Below are positions 27,335 through 38,223 of a stretch of DNA of 64,000 nucleotides, in pieces. The DNA lies in the NCBI GenBank assembly GCA_963827475.1, contig CAWHAZ010000005.1:384001-448000 (forward strand), in the 5' to 3' direction. Under the pieces are notes generated by a model. It had not been told where the DNA came from. It was given only the letters and a program-made list of their open reading frames with translations, and did no database searches. Origin of the DNA: an uncultured Chloroflexia bacterium (lineage in GTDB: Bacteria > Chloroflexota > Limnocylindria > QHBO01). Every line of letters starts with the position of its first letter. The first letter of the stretch is position 1. Made by a program: the position numbers and the translations under genes.

Positions 27335-29929
27335 TCAGCTGGTCTTGGTGACGACGTTCACCAGTCGCCCGGGAATGTGGACGACGCGGGCCGGCGCCCG
27401 GCCGTCCAGGTAGGCCTGCACGCGCTCTGAGGCGAGCGCCAGGCGCTCGATCTCCTCCTCCGTCGTGTCCGGCGGTACCAGCAGCCGGTCCCGCAGCTTG
27501 CCGTCGACCTGGACGGGCAGCTCGATGAGGTCCTCCACGGCCAGCGCGCGATCTGCCGCCGGCCACGCCTGCTGGTGCACCGAATACGGGTGACCCCGAC
27601 GCTCCCACAGTTCCTCGGTGATGTGCGGAGCGGCCGGGGCGAGCAGGAGGAGGAGCGTGTCCACGGCCTCGTCGACGACCTCGCCAGACACCCCCCGGCT
27701 GAGCGCATCGGCGATCGCGTTCGACAGCTCCATGAGCTTCGACAGCGCGGTGTTGAAGTGCAGCTCCCCGTAGTCCGCGGTGACCGCCGCGATGGTCTGG
27801 TGGGTCGCTCGCCGTAGGGCGCGGTCGCCGGCGCTGATCGCGGCCAAGAGCTCGTCCGCCGATGTCCCGCCGCTGCCGGGGATCTCTCCGGCGATGCTGC
27901 GCGGCGGCATCCCGGGCACGGACGCATCGGGCAGCTCCGCGCCCGCCACACCGGGAGCGGATGGTTGGGCCAGGTTCCAGACCCGCGCCAGGAAGCGGGA
28001 GATGCCCTCGATGCCAGTCGGGGACCAGGGACCGCCCTGGTCCCAGGGACCGATGAACAGCAGGAACAGGCGGACCGTGTCGGCCCCGTAGCGCTCGACG
28101 AGGTCGTCGGGGTTCACGACGTTGCCGCGGCTCTTGCTCATCCGCTGGTGATCGGCGCCGAGGATCTGGCCCTGGTTGCGCAACGCGGTGAACGGCTCGT
28201 TGAATGACAGGTGGCCCATGTCCCGCAGCGCCTTTACGAAGAAGCGGCTGTACAGCAGGTGAAGCACCGCATGCTCGGCGCCGCCGGTATACAGGTTCAC
28301 CGGCATCCAGTGCCGCATCGCCTCGGGGTCCCAGGCCGCCCGATCGTCGTGGGGCGAGGTGTAACGGAGGTAGTACCAGCTCGAGTCGACAAAGGTGTCC
28401 ATCGTGTCCGTCTCGCGTCGAGCGGGCTCGCCGCCGACCGGGCAGGTGGCCGCCAAGAAGCCGGCGTGCGACTGGAGCGGCGAGACGCCGGTCGGGGCGA
28501 AGTCGACGTCACGGGGCAGGAGGACCGGCAGCTCGGACTCCGGGACCGGCTGGGCGCCGTGGACGTCGCAGTACACGATCGGGATCGGCGCGCCCCAGTA
28601 GCGCTGGCGCGAGACGAGCCAGTCCCGGATCTTGTAGGTCACCGCCGGCCCGCCGAGATCGCGCTCGGCGAGATGGGCGGTGATGGCCGCGATGCCCTCC
28701 GCCGCGCTCATGCCGGTGAACTCGCCCGAGTTGACGAGCACCTCGTCCTCGGTGTGGGCGGTGAATGCCGCGTCGACCGACGGCTCCTCGCCGCGAGGCG
28801 CCACCACCACTTCGATCGGCAAGTCGTAGCGGCGAGCGAAATCGTAGTCCCGGGCATCGTGCGCCGGCACCCCCATGATCGCGCCCGTGCCGTAGCCGGG
28901 CAGGACGTAGTCGGCGATCCAGACCGGGACTGGCTCATCGGTCAGCGGGTTCACCGCGTACGCACCGATGAAGACGCCGGAGCGCTCACGCTCAGTCGAC
29001 AGCCGATCGATCTCCGTCTCGCGCCGGGCAGCGGCCACGTAGGCCTCGACCTCCGCCCGCCGGTCATCGGTCGTCAGCCGCGGCACCAGGGCGTGCTCCG
29101 GGGCGAGCACCATGAACGTGGCCCCGAAGATCGTGTCCGGGCGGGTGGTGAACACCCGGATCGGTTCCATGCCCTCGGCATCGGCTTCCGCGGCGGATCC
29201 GATGGGTGCCACGGGGAAGTCGATCTCCGCTCCCTCGGATCGGCCGATCCAGTTCGTCTGCATGAGGAGGATCGGCTCCGGCCAGTCCATGCCGGTGAAG
29301 TCGAGCAGCTCGTCGGCGTACTTCGTGATCCGGAAGAACCACTGCTCGAGGTCGCGCTTGATGACCGGCGTGTCACAGCGCCAGCAGCGACGCTCCGTGC
29401 CGAGCACCTGCTCCCGGGCGAGCACGACCTGGTCCTTCGGGCACCAGTCGACCGCGGCCATGGCCTTGTACGCGAGCCCGGCCTTGTAGAACTGCAGGAA
29501 GAGCCACTGCGTCCAGCGGTAAAAGGCCGGATCGGAGGCGATGACCTCGCGCGACCAGTCCCACGATGCGCCCATCGTTCGGAACTGGGCGCGCATCCGG
29601 TCGATGTTGGCGTTCGTCCAGTCCGCCGGATGGATACCGCGGTCGATGGCCGCGTTCTCGGCCGGCAGCCCGAACGAGTCGAAGCCCATCGGCAGCATGA
29701 CCTGCTCGCCCCGCATCCGATGCATGCGTGCCACGACGTCCGGCCCCACGGACGCATACCAGTGACCGATGTGCACGTCCCCGCTGGTGTACGGGTACAT
29801 CGTCAGCAGGAAAAACGGGCCGCTCGCGTCGTCGTGGGCGCGGTACAGCTCGTCGCGCTCCCAGCGCTCGCGCCACCTGGCCTCGTACGAGGATGGATCG
29901 AGGCGCTCGGGCCGTGCGGCATCGGTCAT
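27335..29929 (-). CDS. leuS: Leucine--tRNA ligase
   Basis: MYPYTSGDVHIGH, FTTRPDT editing domain, RETDTMDTF, RMSKS. Confidence 0.97.
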   Translation of the reverse strand: MTDAARPERLDPSSYEARWRERWERDELYRAHDDASGPFFLLTMYPYTSGDVHIGHWYASVGPDVVARMHRMRGEQVMLPMGFDSFGLPAENAAIDRGIHPADWTNANIDRMRAQFRTMGASWDWSREVIASDPAFYRWTQWLFLQFYKAGLAYKAMAAVDWCPKDQVVLAREQVLGTERRCWRCDTPVIKRDLEQWFFRITKYADELLDFTGMDWPEPILLMQTNWIGRSEGAEIDFPVAPIGSAAEADAEGMEPIRVFTTRPDTIFGATFMVLAPEHALVPRLTTDDRRAEVEAYVAAARRETEIDRLSTERERSGVFIGAYAVNPLTDEPVPVWIADYVLPGYGTGAIMGVPAHDARDYDFARRYDLPIEVVVAPRGEEPSVDAAFTAHTEDEVLVNSGEFTGMSAAEGIAAITAHLAERDLGGPAVTYKIRDWLVSRQRYWGAPIPIVYCDVHGAQPVPESELPVLLPRDVDFAPTGVSPLQSHAGFLAATCPVGGEPARRETDTMDTFVDSSWYYLRYTSPHDDRAAWDPEAMRHWMPVNLYTGGAEHAVLHLLYSRFFVKALRDMGHLSFNEPFTALRNQGQILGADHQRMSKSRGNVVNPDDLVERYGADTVRLFLLFIGPWDQGGPWSPTGIEGISRFLARVWNLAQPSAPGVAGAELPDASVPGMPPRSIAGEIPGSGGTSADELLAAISAGDRALRRATHQTIAAVTADYGELHFNTALSKLMELSNAIADALSRGVSGEVVDEAVDTLLLLLAPAAPHITEELWERRGHPYSVHQQAWPAADRALAVEDLIELPVQVDGKLRDRLLVPPDTTEEEIERLALASERVQAYLDGRAPARVVHIPGRLVNVVTKTS

Positions 29930-30519
29930 GGCGTGCCCTCCCCGGCGCGCCATCGGTCGGCCGCGCCGCTCTCCGGGAACCATGCCATGAGCAGCTCGTC
30001 GCGGTACGTGCCGTCAGCCTGGCGGAACTGGCGCCGGCGCAGTCCCTCGCGGACGAAGCCGGCCCGCGTGTACACCGCGATCGCCCGCGCATTGTCGGGG
30101 AACACGCTGAGCGCCAGGCGGGTCATGCCCCGCTCGCGCACCCAGTCCTGGGCGGTGGCCACCAGGGCAGTGCCCAGGCCGACGTCCCGCCAGCCGCCGG
30201 CCACGGTCACCGACAGCACGCCGACGTGGCGCGAGCTGACATCCCGGTCCGACATCACCAGGGCGTTGCCCACGACCTCGCCGCCGGCGTCGGCGACCAC
30301 CACGGCGGACTCGTCGGCCCGGATCAGCTCCGCGATGAAGAACGCCTCGGACGGCGGGCTCACCGCCGTGGCCGGCGTCACCAGCCAGCGCCCCTCGGCG
30401 CGGACCGCCGCGTACAGGTTCGCCAGGGGCTCGGCATCGGCCGGGCGAGCGTGGCGCAGCACCCATGGACGGCCGTCGGCCGCAATGCGCTCCGAGATGA
30501 AGGTGCTGGTCGTGGTCAC
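29926..30519 (-). CDS. GNAT acetyltransferase, first gene of the leuS operon
   Basis: GxGTAL CoA motif, NARAIAVYTRAGFVREG, DELLMA; GGAG RBS before the GTG; ATGA overlap with leuS. Confidence 0.85.
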   Translation of the reverse strand: MTTTSTFISERIAADGRPWVLRHARPADAEPLANLYAAVRAEGRWLVTPATAVSPPSEAFFIAELIRADESAVVVADAGGEVVGNALVMSDRDVSSRHVGVLSVTVAGGWRDVGLGTALVATAQDWVRERGMTRLALSVFPDNARAIAVYTRAGFVREGLRRRQFRQADGTYRDELLMAWFPESGAADRWRAGEGTP

Positions 30520-30547
30520 CGCCGTGGCTCCGTCGATATCGGTCCCG

Positions 30548-30587
30548 AGAAACAACGCGACCCCGCTTCGTCAGGACGAAGGGGGTC
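30548..30587 (-). terminator. T-box intrinsic terminator
   Basis: GACCCCCTTCGTC-CT-GACGAAGCGGGGTC hairpin followed by GCGTTGTTTCT. Confidence 0.8.
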
Positions 30588-30620
30588 AGCCTCGCGGTAC
30601 CACCTGAGCTTGACCGATGG

Positions 30621-30696
30621 TGGTGGAGCTGGGGGGACTCGAACCCCCGACCCCCTGCATGCCATGCAGGTGCTCTCCCAGCTGAGCTACAACCCC
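30621..30696 (-). tRNA. tRNA-Ala(GGC)
   Basis: 76 nt cloverleaf GGGGTTGTAGCTCAGCTGGGAGAGCACCTGCATGGCATGCAGGGGGTCGGGGGTTCGAGTCCCCCCAGCTCCACCA; G3:U70, encoded CCA. Confidence 0.97.
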
Positions 30697-30860
30697 ACGG
30701 TCGGTCCACTCGTCGGCGCGATATCGGACGCCATCCGGCCGGCTCTCACCAGCTGCTCGACGGGCGAGTTCCGCGCTTCGTCGCCACCGGCTTCCACCGT
30801 CCCGGCTCGCTGCGGGCGACGTGGGCGCCTACTGCTCCCGCGTCAACGCGTTCGTGGCCG

Positions 30861-30890
30861 AGTATAGCGAAGGGTGTCGCGCCCTCTCAA
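30861..30890 (-). promoter_or_regulatory. Housekeeping sigma promoter for the T-box/tRNA/GNAT/leuS transcript
   Basis: TTGAGA-N18-TATACT just upstream of T-box Stem I. Confidence 0.75.
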
Positions 30891-30916
30891 TCGGTGCCGA
30901 TGGCGCGCCGTCCGCT

Positions 30917-31701
30917 TCAGACGGCCGGCGCCTCGGGCTCCGCTTCGTCCTTCGCCCCGGCTGCCGGGCCAGCCAGGCGGCCCACAGCGGAACCAGGATG
31001 CCCGCGAAGACGATGGTGATGACCTGCGACAGCAGGAAGAAGTCGAACTCGGTGCCCGCCTCGATGAGCAGCGGGACGGCCACGTGGTCCCAGACGACGC
31101 TGATCAACCCGAGCACGGCAACGACCCGCGCGAAGACCGCCAGGCCGGCGGGAACCCAGCCCGCCGCGCCGGCGAGCCCGGCGAAGGCCAGCAGACCGAT
31201 GGCGAACATGACCACGACTCCGCCGTTCAGCCAGAACACGATTCCCTCGACGACGAACCGGATCATCTCCCGGCTCACGAGCTCCTCGGCGAGGAACCCG
31301 CAGTCGCAGTACTCGGGGTTGGTGGCGGCCTCGATGGCGCCGAGGTAGATCAGATTCGACGCGACCCCAAGGGTGCCGGCCACGATGAAACCGACGGCCA
31401 TGAGGCCGCTTCGGGCGTCTTCACGATTCATCGCCTGGCTGAGGACGAGACCAAGGACCGCAATCCCCGCAAACGCGATCGCGAACAGAAGCGACGACGA
31501 GAGGTCTTCGAGCCAATGCTCCTGGGCGTGTTCGAAACCGGCCAGGATGACGTCGACGCCCGTGAGATTGGGATCAAAGGGGGGCTCCGGCACGAAGACG
31601 TGGAAAATCTTCAGCCCGTAGATGACGGCCGCGAGCAGCAACGCGACGGCGATCAACCAGCCAAGTCGGGATGTATGGGTGCGCCAGGCGGAATCAGGCA
31701 T
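30917..31701 (-). CDS. Multi-pass membrane protein, unknown function
   Basis: About 6 TM helices, YCDC motif. The true stop is probably TGA at 30917 after an indel, because the tracked ORF otherwise runs into the T-box promoter. Confidence 0.6.
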
Positions 31702-33788: not shown

Positions 33789-34880
33789 ATGAGCAGACGC
33801 GTCATTCCCGTCGGCTTCCTACTCATCGCGCTGGTCATCGCCGCGTGCGAGTCGTCGCCCAGCCCATCCCCATCGGGGGAGCCGTCGGCTGGCGAGTCTG
33901 CATCAGCGGTTCCGACACCGGGTGAGCCGCCCGCGGAGGGCCGCCTGGCCCTCGTGCAGGAGCGGGGACAGTTGATCTGCGGAATCAACGGCAGCCTGCC
34001 GGGATTCAGCTTCCTGGACTCGGCGAGTGGCGAAACCACCGGATTCGACGCCGACTTCTGTCGCGCGGTCGCCGCCGCTGTCTTGGGCGATCCGACCCTG
34101 GTGGAGTTCCGAGCGCTTAACGCCGACGCTCGTGGACCGGCTCTCCAGAGCCAGGAGATTGACGTCCTGATCCGCAACACCACGTGGACCGTGACCCGCG
34201 ACACGGATTGGGGCCTCTTCGCGCCGACCACGTTCTACGACGGCCAGGGCATGATGGTTCGCTCTGCGGACGGGATCAGCTCGCTCGCAGACCTGGAGGG
34301 CGCCACCATCTGCGTCCAGACCGGCACGACCACCGAGCTGAACCTGGCCGATGTGTTCGGGTCCGAAGGCATCGATTTCACCCCGCTGCCATTCGGCGAG
34401 ATCGAGCAGACCTACTCGGCGTACGACGAGGGCAGCTGCGACGCAGTCACCAGCGACCGCTCACAGCTGATCGCGCAGCGGACCACGCTCAGCAACCCGG
34501 ACGACCACGTCGTCCTGGAAGAGGTCATGTCCAAGGAGCCTCTGGGCCCCGTCGTTCCGCACGGGGACGAGGGGTGGTTCAACATCGTCAAGTGGGTGGT
34601 CTTTGCCACCATCGAGTCAGAGGAGCGGGGAATCACCCAGGACAACGTGGCCGACATGGTCGGCAGCGACAACGTGGTGATTGCCCGCCTGCTCGGGGCA
34701 GAGGGAGATCTCGGTCTGGGGCTGGAGCCCGACTGGGTGGTGGACGTGATCACCGCCGTCGGTAACTACGGCGAGATCTACGAGCGCAACCTGGGTCCCG
34801 GGACCCCGTTCGACCTCGATCGCGGGCCGAACAGCCTGTGGACCGAAGGTGGGCTCCTGTACGCACCGCCCTACCGGTAG
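33789..34880 (+). CDS. aapJ: General L-amino acid ABC transporter substrate-binding lipoprotein
   Basis: IAAC lipobox, GFDADFCRAVAAA, RNTTWT, SKEPLGP, VGNYGEIYERN, GGLLYAPP. Confidence 0.9.
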   Translation: MSRRVIPVGFLLIALVIAACESSPSPSPSGEPSAGESASAVPTPGEPPAEGRLALVQERGQLICGINGSLPGFSFLDSASGETTGFDADFCRAVAAAVLGDPTLVEFRALNADARGPALQSQEIDVLIRNTTWTVTRDTDWGLFAPTTFYDGQGMMVRSADGISSLADLEGATICVQTGTTTELNLADVFGSEGIDFTPLPFGEIEQTYSAYDEGSCDAVTSDRSQLIAQRTTLSNPDDHVVLEEVMSKEPLGPVVPHGDEGWFNIVKWVVFATIESEERGITQDNVADMVGSDNVVIARLLGAEGDLGLGLEPDWVVDVITAVGNYGEIYERNLGPGTPFDLDRGPNSLWTEGGLLYAPPYR

Positions 34881-38147: not shown

Positions 38148-38223
38148 TGGTGGAGATGAGGGGACTCGAACCCCTGACCCCCGCGATGCGAACGCGGTGC
38201 TCTCCCAGCTGAGCTACATCCCC
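38148..38223 (-). tRNA. tRNA-Ala(CGC)
   Basis: 76 nt GGGGATGTAGCTCAGCTGGGAGAGCACCGCGTTCGCATCGCGGGGGTCAGGGGTTCGAGTCCCCTCATCTCCACCA. Confidence 0.97.

Follow-up and report, generated by a model that had tools for sequence, protein, structure and literature searches.

The leader of leuS in a bacterium of the Chloroflexota carries a complete tRNA-Ala(GGC) gene within a T-box riboswitch. It lies in a 64,000-nucleotide stretch of DNA from an uncultured Chloroflexia bacterium, here called the window, and the tRNA occupies the variable Stem III of the riboswitch. The reading that we favor, with a probability of roughly 0.7, is that of a leuS T-box attenuator that bears the assembly's only tRNA-Ala(GGC) in Stem III, is expressed from one constitutive promoter, and reaches its regulatory decision before the tRNA is processed out of the transcript.

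Anatomy of the leuS leader and its nested tRNA

All elements named in the original prediction are present on the minus strand at the positions where it had placed them. In the direction of transcription, the leader and the genes that follow it consist of:

30861..30890, minus strand: promoter-like site, TTGAGA (30890-30885), an 18-nt spacer and TATACT (30866-30861), with 10/12 consensus matches
30569..30855, minus strand: whole T-box leader including the nested tRNA, positions 1-219 of Rfam model RF00230 (50.0 bits, E = 4.5e-10)
30755..30849, minus strand: Stem I, with AGUA/GAA specifier-loop motifs, AGCGA bulge and GGUGGAA distal loop (covariance-model alignment)
30766..30768, minus strand: specifier codon CUC (Leu), followed by G (sequence and covariance-model alignment, GAA-CUC-G)
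30738..30753, minus strand: Stem II hairpin, GCUGGU-GAGA-GCCGGC (covariance-model alignment and fold)
30707..30737, minus strand: Stem IIA/B region, with the CGGAUGGCGUCCG hairpin, the CCGAUAUC box and a conserved GAGUG ahead of Stem III (covariance-model alignment; hairpin also in the fold)
30701..30706, minus strand: 5′ strand of the Stem III closing helix, GACCGA (covariance-model alignment and fold)
30621..30696, minus strand: tRNA-Ala(GGC), 76 nt, with G3:U70, A73 and encoded CCA (ARAGORN; Rfam RF00005, 62.5 bits)
30612..30617, minus strand: 3′ strand of the closing helix, UCGGUC (covariance-model alignment and fold)
30593..30605, minus strand: T-box sequence AGGUGGUACCGCG, with the UGGU bulge at 30602-30599
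(sequence and covariance-model alignment)
30549..30587, minus strand: terminator hairpin, GACCCCCUUCGUC ... GACGAAGCGGGGUC, and U-rich tail (fold; inner part, 30577..30560, by terminator scan)
29926..30555, minus strand: open reading frame of a GNAT-family acetyltransferase, listed TTG start at 30555 (GNAT models, RimI-like among them, each scoring under its cut-off)
27335..29983, minus strand: leuS, leucine--tRNA ligase (TIGR00396, 931.5 bits against a cut-off of 548.4)

The covariance-model search aligned RF00230 over its full length, with the nested tRNA region accommodated as an 81-nt insertion in the Stem III loop, and a genome-wide T-box search returned the identical match. A default Rfam scan of the window at gathering thresholds reported two tRNAs and no T-box, because the leader's score of 50 lies below the gathering score of 93, and a permissive scan was needed to recover it. 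Neither of the genome's two uninterrupted T-boxes reaches that threshold either (67.6 and 61.2 bits). Folding energy is uninformative for this leader of 70% G+C, its z-score being 0.01.

Within the expression platform, the 5′ arm of the terminator overlaps the 3′ arm of the antiterminator, with a UUCGUC segment common to both, making the two helices mutually exclusive. The cognate tRNA-Leu(GAG) is encoded elsewhere in the genome (C5:961093-961177) and ends in ACCA, complementary to the UGGU bulge. The TTGAGA-18-TATACT site is the only promoter-like site between 30300 and 31100 (mean of 0.0 in shuffled sequences), and the scan of this interval found no second one in the leader. Across an alignment of leaders from the window's family, the -10 element TATACT is almost unchanging, while the arms of Stem I differ with pairing retained, as judged by eye. 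Downstream, the GNAT gene separates the T-box from leuS in Limnocylindria-like loci only; a GTG at 30519, with GGAG before it, would be a more likely start for it than the listed TTG.

The nested cloverleaf passes both tRNA models applied to it, ARAGORN and RF00005, the latter against a gathering score of 29. Its sequence is invariant across 29 leaders of the family save for a 1-nt gap in one of them (L005). That this might be the genome's only tRNA-Ala(GGC), a point raised in the original prediction, is borne out for the assembly, which leaves 10% of the genome unassembled. ARAGORN made further "tRNA-Ala" calls on C6 and C7 (94 and 93 nt), which we rejected as false positives with mismatched stems and no T-loop consensus. 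The nested gene is likewise the sole GGC copy in another carrier genome (G013) and in Desulfotruncus alcoholivorax (G439), a statement confined to the Ala tRNA genes recovered and checked there, since BLAST with the window tRNA failed to list Desulfotruncus's own nested tRNA.

Conservation of the nesting and of its closing helix

The same nesting recurs in relatives of the window's genome. A leader with a nested tRNA occurs in 31 of the 36 other genomes of its family; the tRNA is tRNA-Ala(GGC) in 30/30 extracted family leaders (27/27 when three unpublished genomes are left out) and in 10/10 additional loci, of which two belong to the window's own family and eight to other families of its class. 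A pattern scan across named genomes extended this range: 71 of 80 loci have a tRNA-Ala(GGC) just before the T-box sequence, and their carriers are Chloroflexota, clostridial-type Bacillota and one Armatimonadota-labelled metagenome-assembled genome (MAG). All 71 tRNA-bearing loci hold this isoacceptor and no other, leuS lies downstream in 64 of the 71, and GAACUC, which contains the specifier CUC, is found in 67 of the 68 loci whose upstream sequence extends 200 nt or more; since kin loci are not independent, these counts overstate the number of separate observations. RF00230 spans the tRNA at full length in each of eight diverse nested loci, five of which exceed the gathering score (96.5-133 bits). 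Further phyla suggested by MAG labels (a proteobacterium, Methylocystaceae, Bacteroidales and Acidiferrales) were not counted, their leaders matching Chloroflexota or Syntrophomonadaceae types.

In genome samples, the exact pattern was found in 29/401 Chloroflexota and 7/71 members of Desulfotruncus's phylum (7-10%), a search that misses true cases such as those in G069 and G090; the reversed control pattern gave 0 in both samples. Nesting is absent from many lineages. Isolate genomes with the nesting include Desulfotruncus alcoholivorax DSM 16058, Desulfofundulus thermosubterraneus DSM 16057 and Tengunoibacter tsumagoiensis Uno3. To call the placement of this tRNA unusual, as was first done from the sequence of the window, is an understatement: the nesting is widespread and spans at least two phyla.

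We examined the helix that closes Stem III around the tRNA. In the window, the covariance-model alignment and an unconstrained minimum-free-energy fold agree that this helix surrounds the full cloverleaf. Across loci, 64 distinct pairs of strands have a mean of 5.34 of 6 positions paired, compared with 3.80 when partners are shuffled (sd 0.11, maximum 4.17, 2000 shuffles), and several types of Watson-Crick pair occur at each of positions 2-5. Linker length between helix and tRNA is variable: 0-28 nt 5′ of the tRNA and 0-84 nt 3′ of it. With conservation across more than 100 loci and compensatory changes in the closing helix, the survey of related leuS leaders upholds the original view of a maintained structure rather than a disrupting insertion.

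Some relatives display other states. In one (G066), the tRNA lies ahead of an uninterrupted T-box; in two related families (f3 and f4), the tRNA is kept before leuS, the T-box is gone, and a -10-like box lies 10-15 nt ahead of the tRNA. From this it follows that tRNA and leuS were linked before the nesting arose, and judging by the sequences compared here the linkage is also the more stable of the two.

Metatranscriptome contigs run from Stem I through the tRNA into the antiterminator, DNA in the libraries being possible. One (X1 record 5) spans 30566-30854, and another from a second study (X5 record 25) spans 30592-30740 with zero differences. Leader contigs join contigs that enter the GNAT gene through 30-nt overlaps, again with possible DNA carry-over. 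We considered contig ends at 30566/30595 and 30825/30854 as the terminator end and the transcription start, and rejected them: the exact 30-nt overlaps mark junctions of the assembly graph, and assembled contigs cannot show RNA ends. Per-contig depth is 24.8 for leader contigs against 5.9 for GNAT-entering contigs in one dataset (X1) and 51.6 against 20.1 in another (X4), a difference that is unusable as evidence of termination since the conserved leader sequence pools several strains. Depth is also high over the tRNA body, pooled over organisms; this and the sole GGC copy lend indirect support to a tRNA-Ala that may be matured, aminoacylated and used in translation. In RNA runs whose word share is 0.18-0.25, probably just the invariant tRNA is present.

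Proposed order of decision and processing, and competing explanations

These observations are best explained by a transcription-attenuating leuS T-box that would read uncharged tRNA-Leu(GAG) through its specifier CUC and its UGGU bulge, with the tRNA-Ala(GGC) gene carried by the variable Stem III on a 6-bp closing helix. We infer a single transcript from one constitutive promoter, to which the RNA contigs lend weak support. Uncharged tRNA-Leu would stabilize some of these transcripts, and only those would extend into the GNAT gene and leuS. The decision would be made co-transcriptionally, within about 20-70 nt of the emergence of the tRNA. Only later would the tRNA be excised by RNase P and 3′ processing, parting Stems I and II from the antiterminator/terminator portion and giving leuS mRNA a new 5′ end. 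Such severing of the leader is plausible. Were RNase P to act before the polymerase had completed the next 20-70 nt, the leader would be severed before the switch could decide.

Because the tRNA precedes the terminator, every transcript, whether terminated or read through, would be a tRNA-Ala precursor. The suggestion that the leader doubles as a tRNA precursor, already made in the original prediction, thus follows from three features of the locus: the position of the tRNA upstream of the terminator, the sharing of the only promoter-like site, and the presence of a sole GGC copy in the assembly. The linkage might pay by salvaging a leader that would otherwise go to waste, or it might simply reflect a shared promoter that cannot be split.

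A more far-reaching version of this scheme is possible though doubtful. It would make the leader a self-severing leuS riboswitch older than the divergence of Chloroflexota and Bacillota, in which obligatory maturation of tRNA-Ala irreversibly disconnects the sensor (Stems I and II) from the expression platform, sets the 5′ end and stability of leuS mRNA, and couples LeuRS synthesis to the capacity for tRNA processing. Until the decision has been made, the compensated helix would then keep the two halves joined or delay RNase P.

It is also conceivable, if unlikely, that the tRNA is a neutral hitch-hiker, which entered or was enclosed in a tolerant Stem III loop once in a distant ancestor and was kept as the sole GGC gene sharing the leuS promoter, with no functional interplay. 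The variable linkers indicate a geometry that is not fixed, and relatives cope both when the tRNA precedes a T-box that is not interrupted (G066) and when there is a tRNA but no T-box at all (f3 and f4). The linkage of tRNA to leuS is kept more stably than the nesting. Against neutrality, however, the nesting persists in Chloroflexota, Bacillota and Armatimonadota-labelled lineages, and compensatory change preserves the closing helix. Moreover, since excision of the tRNA must cut the leader, a complete lack of interplay demands either very slow processing or halves held together by the helix.

Quite improbable, in our judgment, is that the nested tRNA is itself a working part of the switch, either as a decoy in cis (by pairing of its ACCA end with UGGU, or by docking of its elbow on Stem I) or as an RNase P-dependent timer or off-switch. 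The nested A73-CCA is indeed complementary to the UGGU bulge about 20 nt away, and A73, like G3:U70, is present in 110 of 111 nested tRNAs. The occurrence of the same isoacceptor at all 71 scan loci would also be hard to credit to chance if any tRNA served, but a single origin followed by inheritance explains it equally well. CCA, by contrast, is encoded in just 90 of the 111, the linker lengths vary, and the specifier CUC is unreadable by the anticodon GGC. Structural work has established that the T-box discriminator rejects a tRNA 3′ end bearing any extension, and it should therefore reject the 3′-extended end of the nested tRNA. Competition of the nested ACCA with tRNA-Leu for the bulge, entertained in the original prediction, is accordingly unlikely as a conserved function, given the incomplete encoding of CCA and the variable linkers.

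We regard as very improbable the view that the T-box is a relic, with promoters inside the leader driving the tRNA, leuS or both, and Stems I and II regulating nothing. Such promoters can arise, as the -10-like box in relatives without a T-box indicates, but the window leader has no second promoter-like site, and the gap between the tRNA and the T-box sequence is just 16 nt. In addition, the specifier, the Stem I motifs, the T-box sequence and the terminator are conserved across phyla, and a relic would lose them. Lastly, an assembly artefact or an insertion private to the window's MAG can be dismissed, since more than 100 loci, each assembled independently, show the parts in the same order, isolate genomes and metatranscriptome contigs among them.

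Relation to known systems and significance

In its general plan, the window leader resembles canonical transcriptional T-boxes (RF00230; for example Bacillus tyrS, glyQS and leuS), with which it shares Stem I and its specifier, Stem II and IIA/B, Stem III, a UGGN bulge, competing terminator and antiterminator, and an aminoacyl-tRNA synthetase downstream. Stem III of a canonical T-box is a short, variable hairpin. In the window, by contrast, the Stem III loop consists of an entire housekeeping tRNA gene that serves a different amino acid, and the leader is therefore also expected to be a tRNA precursor that should be cut by tRNA-processing enzymes. Joint transcription of tRNA and mRNA has a precedent in the thrU-tyrU-glyT-thrT-tufB operon of E. 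coli, where both derive from one promoter and the tRNA is cut from a longer transcript. The relatives with the tRNA ahead of an intact T-box or without a T-box (G066, f3 and f4) resemble this plain tRNA-mRNA operon form; in the window, the tRNA sits inside a helix of a regulatory RNA rather than beside it.

Cleavage of T-box leaders also has precedents. The Bacillus subtilis thrS leader is cleaved upstream of its terminator. The met T-box leader of Staphylococcus aureus is reported to be cleaved by RNase III (PMC7913692). In both the thrS and the met leader the cut comes after the decision, leaving an mRNA that begins close to the terminator hairpin, which affects its stability, much as we propose here; these leaders are cut by an mRNA-decay nuclease, whereas the cuts predicted in the window are those of tRNA maturation.

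Two further systems link tRNAs to structured RNAs. GOLLD RNA is described in PMC12990946 as a large structured non-coding RNA of unknown function with an embedded tRNA, found in tRNA arrays and prophages; it resembles the window leader in having a tRNA gene within a structured RNA and differs in having no known ligand or mechanism of gene control. In Bacillus cereus, tRNA-Other is, according to PMC3399842, a separately encoded pseudo-tRNA with no function in translation, whose target in trans is the trpS1 T box. It shares the link between a tRNA-like gene and a T-box but, by the same account, is neither nested nor canonical nor located in the leader; the original prediction, in placing a tRNA-like RNA within a B. 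cereus T-box leader, therefore misplaces what is a separate, trans-acting gene. Term look-ups in a 2020 T-box review (PMC7583486), in Wels 2008 (PMC2494555) and in the TBDB preprint found no mention of a nested tRNA in the text that these look-ups covered. A full-text literature search, with key comparative T-box surveys and their supplements outside its scope, likewise returned no account of such a nesting.

For RNA that senses tRNA, the textbook example is the T-box riboswitch, in which Stem III has been treated as a variable spacer. Here, a terminated leader that would otherwise count as wasted would become a productive tRNA precursor, and the riboswitch would have to work on a transcript destined for cutting between its sensor and its expression platform. 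The nesting thus raises the question of how such a switch functions when tRNA processing should split the leader in two, and provides a natural system for testing the speed of a co-transcriptional decision relative to RNA processing. The existence of cultured carriers, Thermosyntropha lipolytica DSM 11003 among them besides the isolates named above, opens such questions to direct testing. Since standard scans can miss nested leaders (50 against 93 bits here), T-box surveys of high-G+C Chloroflexota are probably incomplete. Finally, the states found among relatives, with the tRNA before a T-box, inside one or without one, make it possible, as is rarely the case, to trace how a tRNA gene and a regulatory RNA came to be interleaved.

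Leader anatomy and genomic setting

On the minus strand of the window, a promoter-like site, T-box, tRNA, terminator, GNAT-family gene and leuS follow one another where the original prediction had placed them. Its central claim, an intact tRNA-Ala(GGC) nested in a complete leucine T-box, proved right in every detail using the T-box covariance model (CM), ARAGORN and the Rfam tRNA model.

Features of the leuS leader (window coordinates)
30890..30861, minus strand: promoter-like site TTGAGA-18-TATACT, the sole one in 30300-31100 (site scan)
30855..30569, minus strand: T-box leader (Rfam T-box model 1-219 end to end, 50.0 bits, E 4.5e-10)
30768-30766, minus strand: specifier CUC in the loop GAA-CUC-G (CM alignment)
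30706-30701 / 30617-30612, minus strand: Stem III closing helix GACCGA/UCGGUC, enclosing the tRNA insert
30696..30621, minus strand: nested tRNA-Ala(GGC), 76 nt (ARAGORN; Rfam tRNA 62.5 bits)
30605-30593, minus strand: T-box sequence AGGUGGUACCGCG (CM alignment)
Downstream of the T-box sequence, minus strand: terminator hairpin and U-rich tail (scan and fold)
29926-30555, minus strand: GNAT-family ORF, between T-box and leuS
Downstream of the GNAT ORF, minus strand: leuS (TIGR00396, 931.5 bits against a cut-off of 548.4)

The Stem I motifs, Stem II and the IIA/B region are all present in the CM alignment, which places an 81-nt insertion atop Stem III. That the flanks of the tRNA pair, so that it caps Stem III, is seen both in this alignment and in an unconstrained fold of 30560-30858, which returns Stem II, the IIA/B hairpin, the closing helix round a full cloverleaf, and the terminator; by folding energy, this segment does not stand out from its shuffles (z = 0.01). 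A search for a separate promoter between the tRNA and the antiterminator found none, and shuffled sequence yielded a mean of 0.0 promoter-like sites versus the one in 30300-31100. By sequence reading, the nested tRNA has G3:U70, A73 and an encoded CCA.

The window's own assembly (1.92 Mb, 70% G+C, 7 contigs, 90% complete), in which the window occupies C5:384001-448000, contains 48 tRNAs by ARAGORN. Within it the nested gene is the sole genuine tRNA-Ala(GGC), with a second copy possible in the missing tenth; two long 'Ala' calls on contigs C6 and C7 were rejected as false positives. Because tRNA-Ala(UGC) and tRNA-Ile(GAU) are absent from the assembly, the rRNA operon is probably unassembled. 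The cognate tRNA-Leu(GAG) is encoded, ends in ACCA, and fits both the CUC specifier and the UGGU bulge. Two other full-length T-boxes score 67.6 bits (C1:21844-22110, plus strand) and 61.2 bits (C5:632732-632932, plus strand), and all other T-box matches in the assembly also fall below the Rfam gathering score of 93. Since uninterrupted T-boxes share this shortfall, the low score of the leuS leader reflects lineage and composition besides the insertion, and default annotation would show no T-box in this genome. A partial match lies at C5:940799-940862 (minus strand, 26.9 bits). Elsewhere in the window, tRNA-Ala(CGC) lies at 38148-38223, on the same strand and 7.4 kb upstream of the leader. An 83-nt ARAGORN call of tRNA-Arg(GCG) at 33943-34025 (plus strand, anticodon at position 37), unreported by the Rfam tRNA model at its gathering score, is probably either spurious or a degenerate tRNA.

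Distribution of the nested and related arrangements

A DNA search of 60 relatives showed that 31 of 36 other genomes in the family share most of the leader, tRNA included; the remaining five, 57-82% complete, match over the tRNA only. ARAGORN placed tRNA-Ala(GGC) at the same position in 30/30 extracted leaders (27/27 excluding the unpublished genomes G016, G021 and G031). Across an alignment of 29 family leaders, the tRNA is invariant but for one single-base gap (in L005), and Stem I, Stem II and the terminator differ in sequence with pairing retained by eye. The survey of related leuS leaders suggested in the original prediction thus found the same nesting, and found it in other families as well: ten more loci, eight from other families of the class (seven f2, one f5) and two from the window's own, all have tRNA-Ala(GGC) after the IIA/B region and ahead of the T-box sequence. 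In those eight, the tRNA sequence differs, encoded CCA is often absent, and the closing helices differ yet remain complementary (GAGAGC/GCUCUC, GAGACA/UGUCUC).

We also scanned named species genomes for a generic tRNA T-arm with a T-box sequence 15-45 nt on, obtaining at least 120 stretches, 80 of which were turned into loci. Among the matches listed, a tRNA lies at the match in 71/80 loci and is tRNA-Ala(GGC) in 71/71; of the remaining nine, two have a tRNA outside any T-box context (one tRNA-Thr, one tRNA-Phe), four have no tRNA and three are cut by the locus edge. By depositor label, 37 of these 71 matches are Chloroflexota (Limnocylindria, Thermomicrobiales, Ktedonobacteria, 'Chloroflexia', Anaerolineae) and 24 Bacillota (Syntrophomonadaceae, Peptococcaceae, Thermoanaerobacteraceae, Thermacetogeniaceae, Desulfotruncus, Desulfofundulus and others); 10 have another or no label, one being Armatimonadota. 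Several odd labels among the 10 look like binning errors, as their leaders match Chloroflexota or Syntrophomonadaceae types. Loci L052, L054, L074, L079 and L111, with leaders of these types, were deposited as Acidiferrales, proteobacterium, Methylocystaceae, Bacteroidales and Proteobacteria; in two of them the matched stretch is identical to that of Chloroflexota genomes in the sample described below, and all five are probably mis-binned contigs or wrongly labelled.

Among the same listed matches, a LeuRS match follows the T-box in 64/71 loci; five of the other seven end within 1.4 kb, and L058 and L082 show none in 1.1-1.7 kb. Of the 68 listed loci whose upstream sequence reaches 200 nt or more, 67 have GAACUC; L064 instead reads GAAGCUCG. 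The Rfam T-box model runs full-length across the tRNA in 8/8 diverse loci, five of them above the gathering score (96.5-133 bits). The exact pattern, which undercounts (G069 and G090 are nested with variant T-box or spacing), is present in 29/401 sampled Chloroflexota genomes and 7/71 sampled genomes of the Desulfotruncus phylum; a reversed control pattern gave 0 in both samples.

Other relatives arrange these parts differently. Two families of the class, f3 and f4 (L166, L167 and L168, from G042, G038 and G044), show no detectable T-box at E <= 0.001 but retain tRNA-Ala(GGC) 40-110 nt ahead of leuS; a -10-like box precedes this tRNA by 10-15 nt. Between tRNA and leuS, f3 has a G+C-rich hairpin and T run that may be left over from the T-box terminator. 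Genome G066 (f11, L178) has tRNA-Ala(CGC), tRNA-Ala(GGC), an uninterrupted 255-nt T-box (66 bits) and leuS, and Tengunoibacter (L177, G440:C1:4795900-4796600) and G090 (L179) have tRNA-Ala(CGC), a T-box with nested tRNA-Ala(GGC), and leuS. G083 and G064 have neither T-box nor Ala tRNA beside leuS. Since f3, f4 and G066 keep the tRNA by leuS without nesting, the tRNA-Ala(GGC)-leuS linkage is more widespread than nesting, itself one of several ways in which these three parts are ordered. A second tRNA directly upstream of the leuS T-box occurs in L177, L179, L178, L079, L080, L082, L099, L114 and L116, from Ktedonobacteria-like and Anaerolineae-like genomes. It proved to be tRNA-Ala(CGC) in the cases checked, and leuS seems to have an old linkage with both Ala isoacceptors. 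One f3 genome (G046) has a fluoride riboswitch upstream of leuS on the opposite strand (L165 1228-1305, minus strand; 44.6 bits against a gathering score of 34).

Among the matches listed, GNAT stands between T-box and leuS only in the Limnocylindria-like lineage (besides the window, L048, L055, L061, L063, L068, L072, L076, L086, L089, L090, L101, L103, L104, L110 and L122), with all GNAT family matches below their cut-offs; this position predicts that it is under leucine-tRNA control. In Anaerolineae-type loci L080, L088, L099, L113, L114 and L116, the LeuRS match falls into two parts, roughly residues 3-440 and 410-880, separated by 200-390 extra bases, which suggests a lineage-specific insertion in LeuRS.

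The closing helix and the nested tRNA

Two anchors defined the closing helix: the conserved G following GAGUG, and the C just 5′ of the AA that leads into the T-box sequence. In all, 102 of 108 loci were scorable, giving 64 distinct strand pairs. A mean of 5.34 of the first 6 positions are paired, a value somewhat inflated by anchoring on the best-pairing candidate, versus 3.80 with shuffled partners (sd 0.11, maximum 4.17, 2000 shuffles). Position 1 is always G-C, and at each of positions 2-5 between three and five kinds of Watson-Crick or G-U pair occur. Compensated helices are plain in the raw list: GACCGA/UCGGUC, GAUAGG/CCUAUC, GACAAA/UUUGUC, GAGAGC/GCUCUC, GUCGG/CCGAC, GACUGA/UCAGUC and GAUGGA/UCCAUC. 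This covariation indicates that the closing helix is selected as a helix, and bears out the proposal of a maintained structure rather than a disrupting insertion.

The 111 nested tRNAs (51 distinct sequences) have G3:U70 in 110, A73 in 110 and encoded CCA in 90. In both G013, a single-contig genome of the same genus, and Desulfotruncus alcoholivorax, the Ala tRNA genes recovered are UGC, CGC and the nested GGC only. Judged by these features, the nested tRNA behaves as a real tRNA.

A tRNA that is a purely neutral hitch-hiker is compatible with these data, in that the helix-tRNA linkers vary (0-28 nt on the 5′ side, 0-84 nt on the 3′ side) and relatives show alternative arrangements. A cis-acting decoy, whose ACCA end was proposed to compete with tRNA-Leu, is disfavoured: 21/111 nested tRNAs encode no CCA, helix-tRNA geometry is variable, and the anticodon mismatches the specifier. 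The specifier and every core motif are conserved, which excludes a relic T-box; more than 100 independent assemblies with the nesting exclude misassembly.

Transcripts, proposed mechanism and precedent

Part of the stretch is present in twenty metatranscriptome runs, all available as assembled contigs, with 40-43% of sampled words in four runs from a single rhizosphere study. One 290-nt contig (X1 record 5) spans 30566-30854, from Stem I through the tRNA to the terminator; others span 30566-30758 (X2 record 14), 30649-30854 (X4 record 23) and, in a second study and with no difference, 30592-30740 (X5 record 25, 151 nt). Contigs bridging both tRNA borders fit an unprocessed precursor or, possibly, DNA in the libraries. 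We rejected contig ends as RNA ends, as they are 30-nt overlaps with neighbouring contigs.

In such a T-box, Stem I binds tRNA-Leu at its anticodon and elbow; when the tRNA is uncharged, its free NCCA end stabilises the antiterminator, beneath which Stem III stacks. To our knowledge the apex of Stem III makes no contact, so a large, independently folding insert would be tolerated there. With the tRNA ahead of the terminator and served by the same sole promoter-like site, each transcript started is expected to give a tRNA-Ala precursor, and GNAT and leuS would be reached only by transcripts that tRNA-Leu stabilises. The decision point lies 20-70 nt after the tRNA, probably well under a few seconds of transcription, and we infer that the decision is taken before RNase P and the 3′ processing enzymes act. 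Excision of the tRNA would then split the leader, leaving a leuS mRNA whose 5′ end falls right behind the tRNA, close to the terminator/antiterminator hairpin. In Bacillus subtilis, a hairpin near the 5′ end of the processed mRNA stabilises thrS mRNA; the predicted leuS mRNA would resemble it in carrying such a hairpin after a leader cut. The closing helix may serve as the normal base of Stem III, and may also be a clamp that holds the halves together or slows RNase P.

In the full-text literature searched, no paper turned up that describes a tRNA gene nested in a T-box leader, and term look-ups in a 2020 T-box review (PMC7583486), Wels et al. 2008 (PMC2494555) and the TBDB preprint gave no mention of such nesting. 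As Bacillota leaders pass the Rfam threshold and overlap annotated tRNAs, we put the chance of an earlier mention in print at roughly one in four. Among the papers found, the closest cases are GOLLD RNA with embedded tRNAs (PMC12990946) and a trans-acting pseudo-tRNA of Bacillus cereus (PMC3399842), the latter being the case that the original prediction described as a tRNA-like RNA in a T-box leader. The nesting matters because it is both ancient and unexpected, and because cultured strains allow direct tests.
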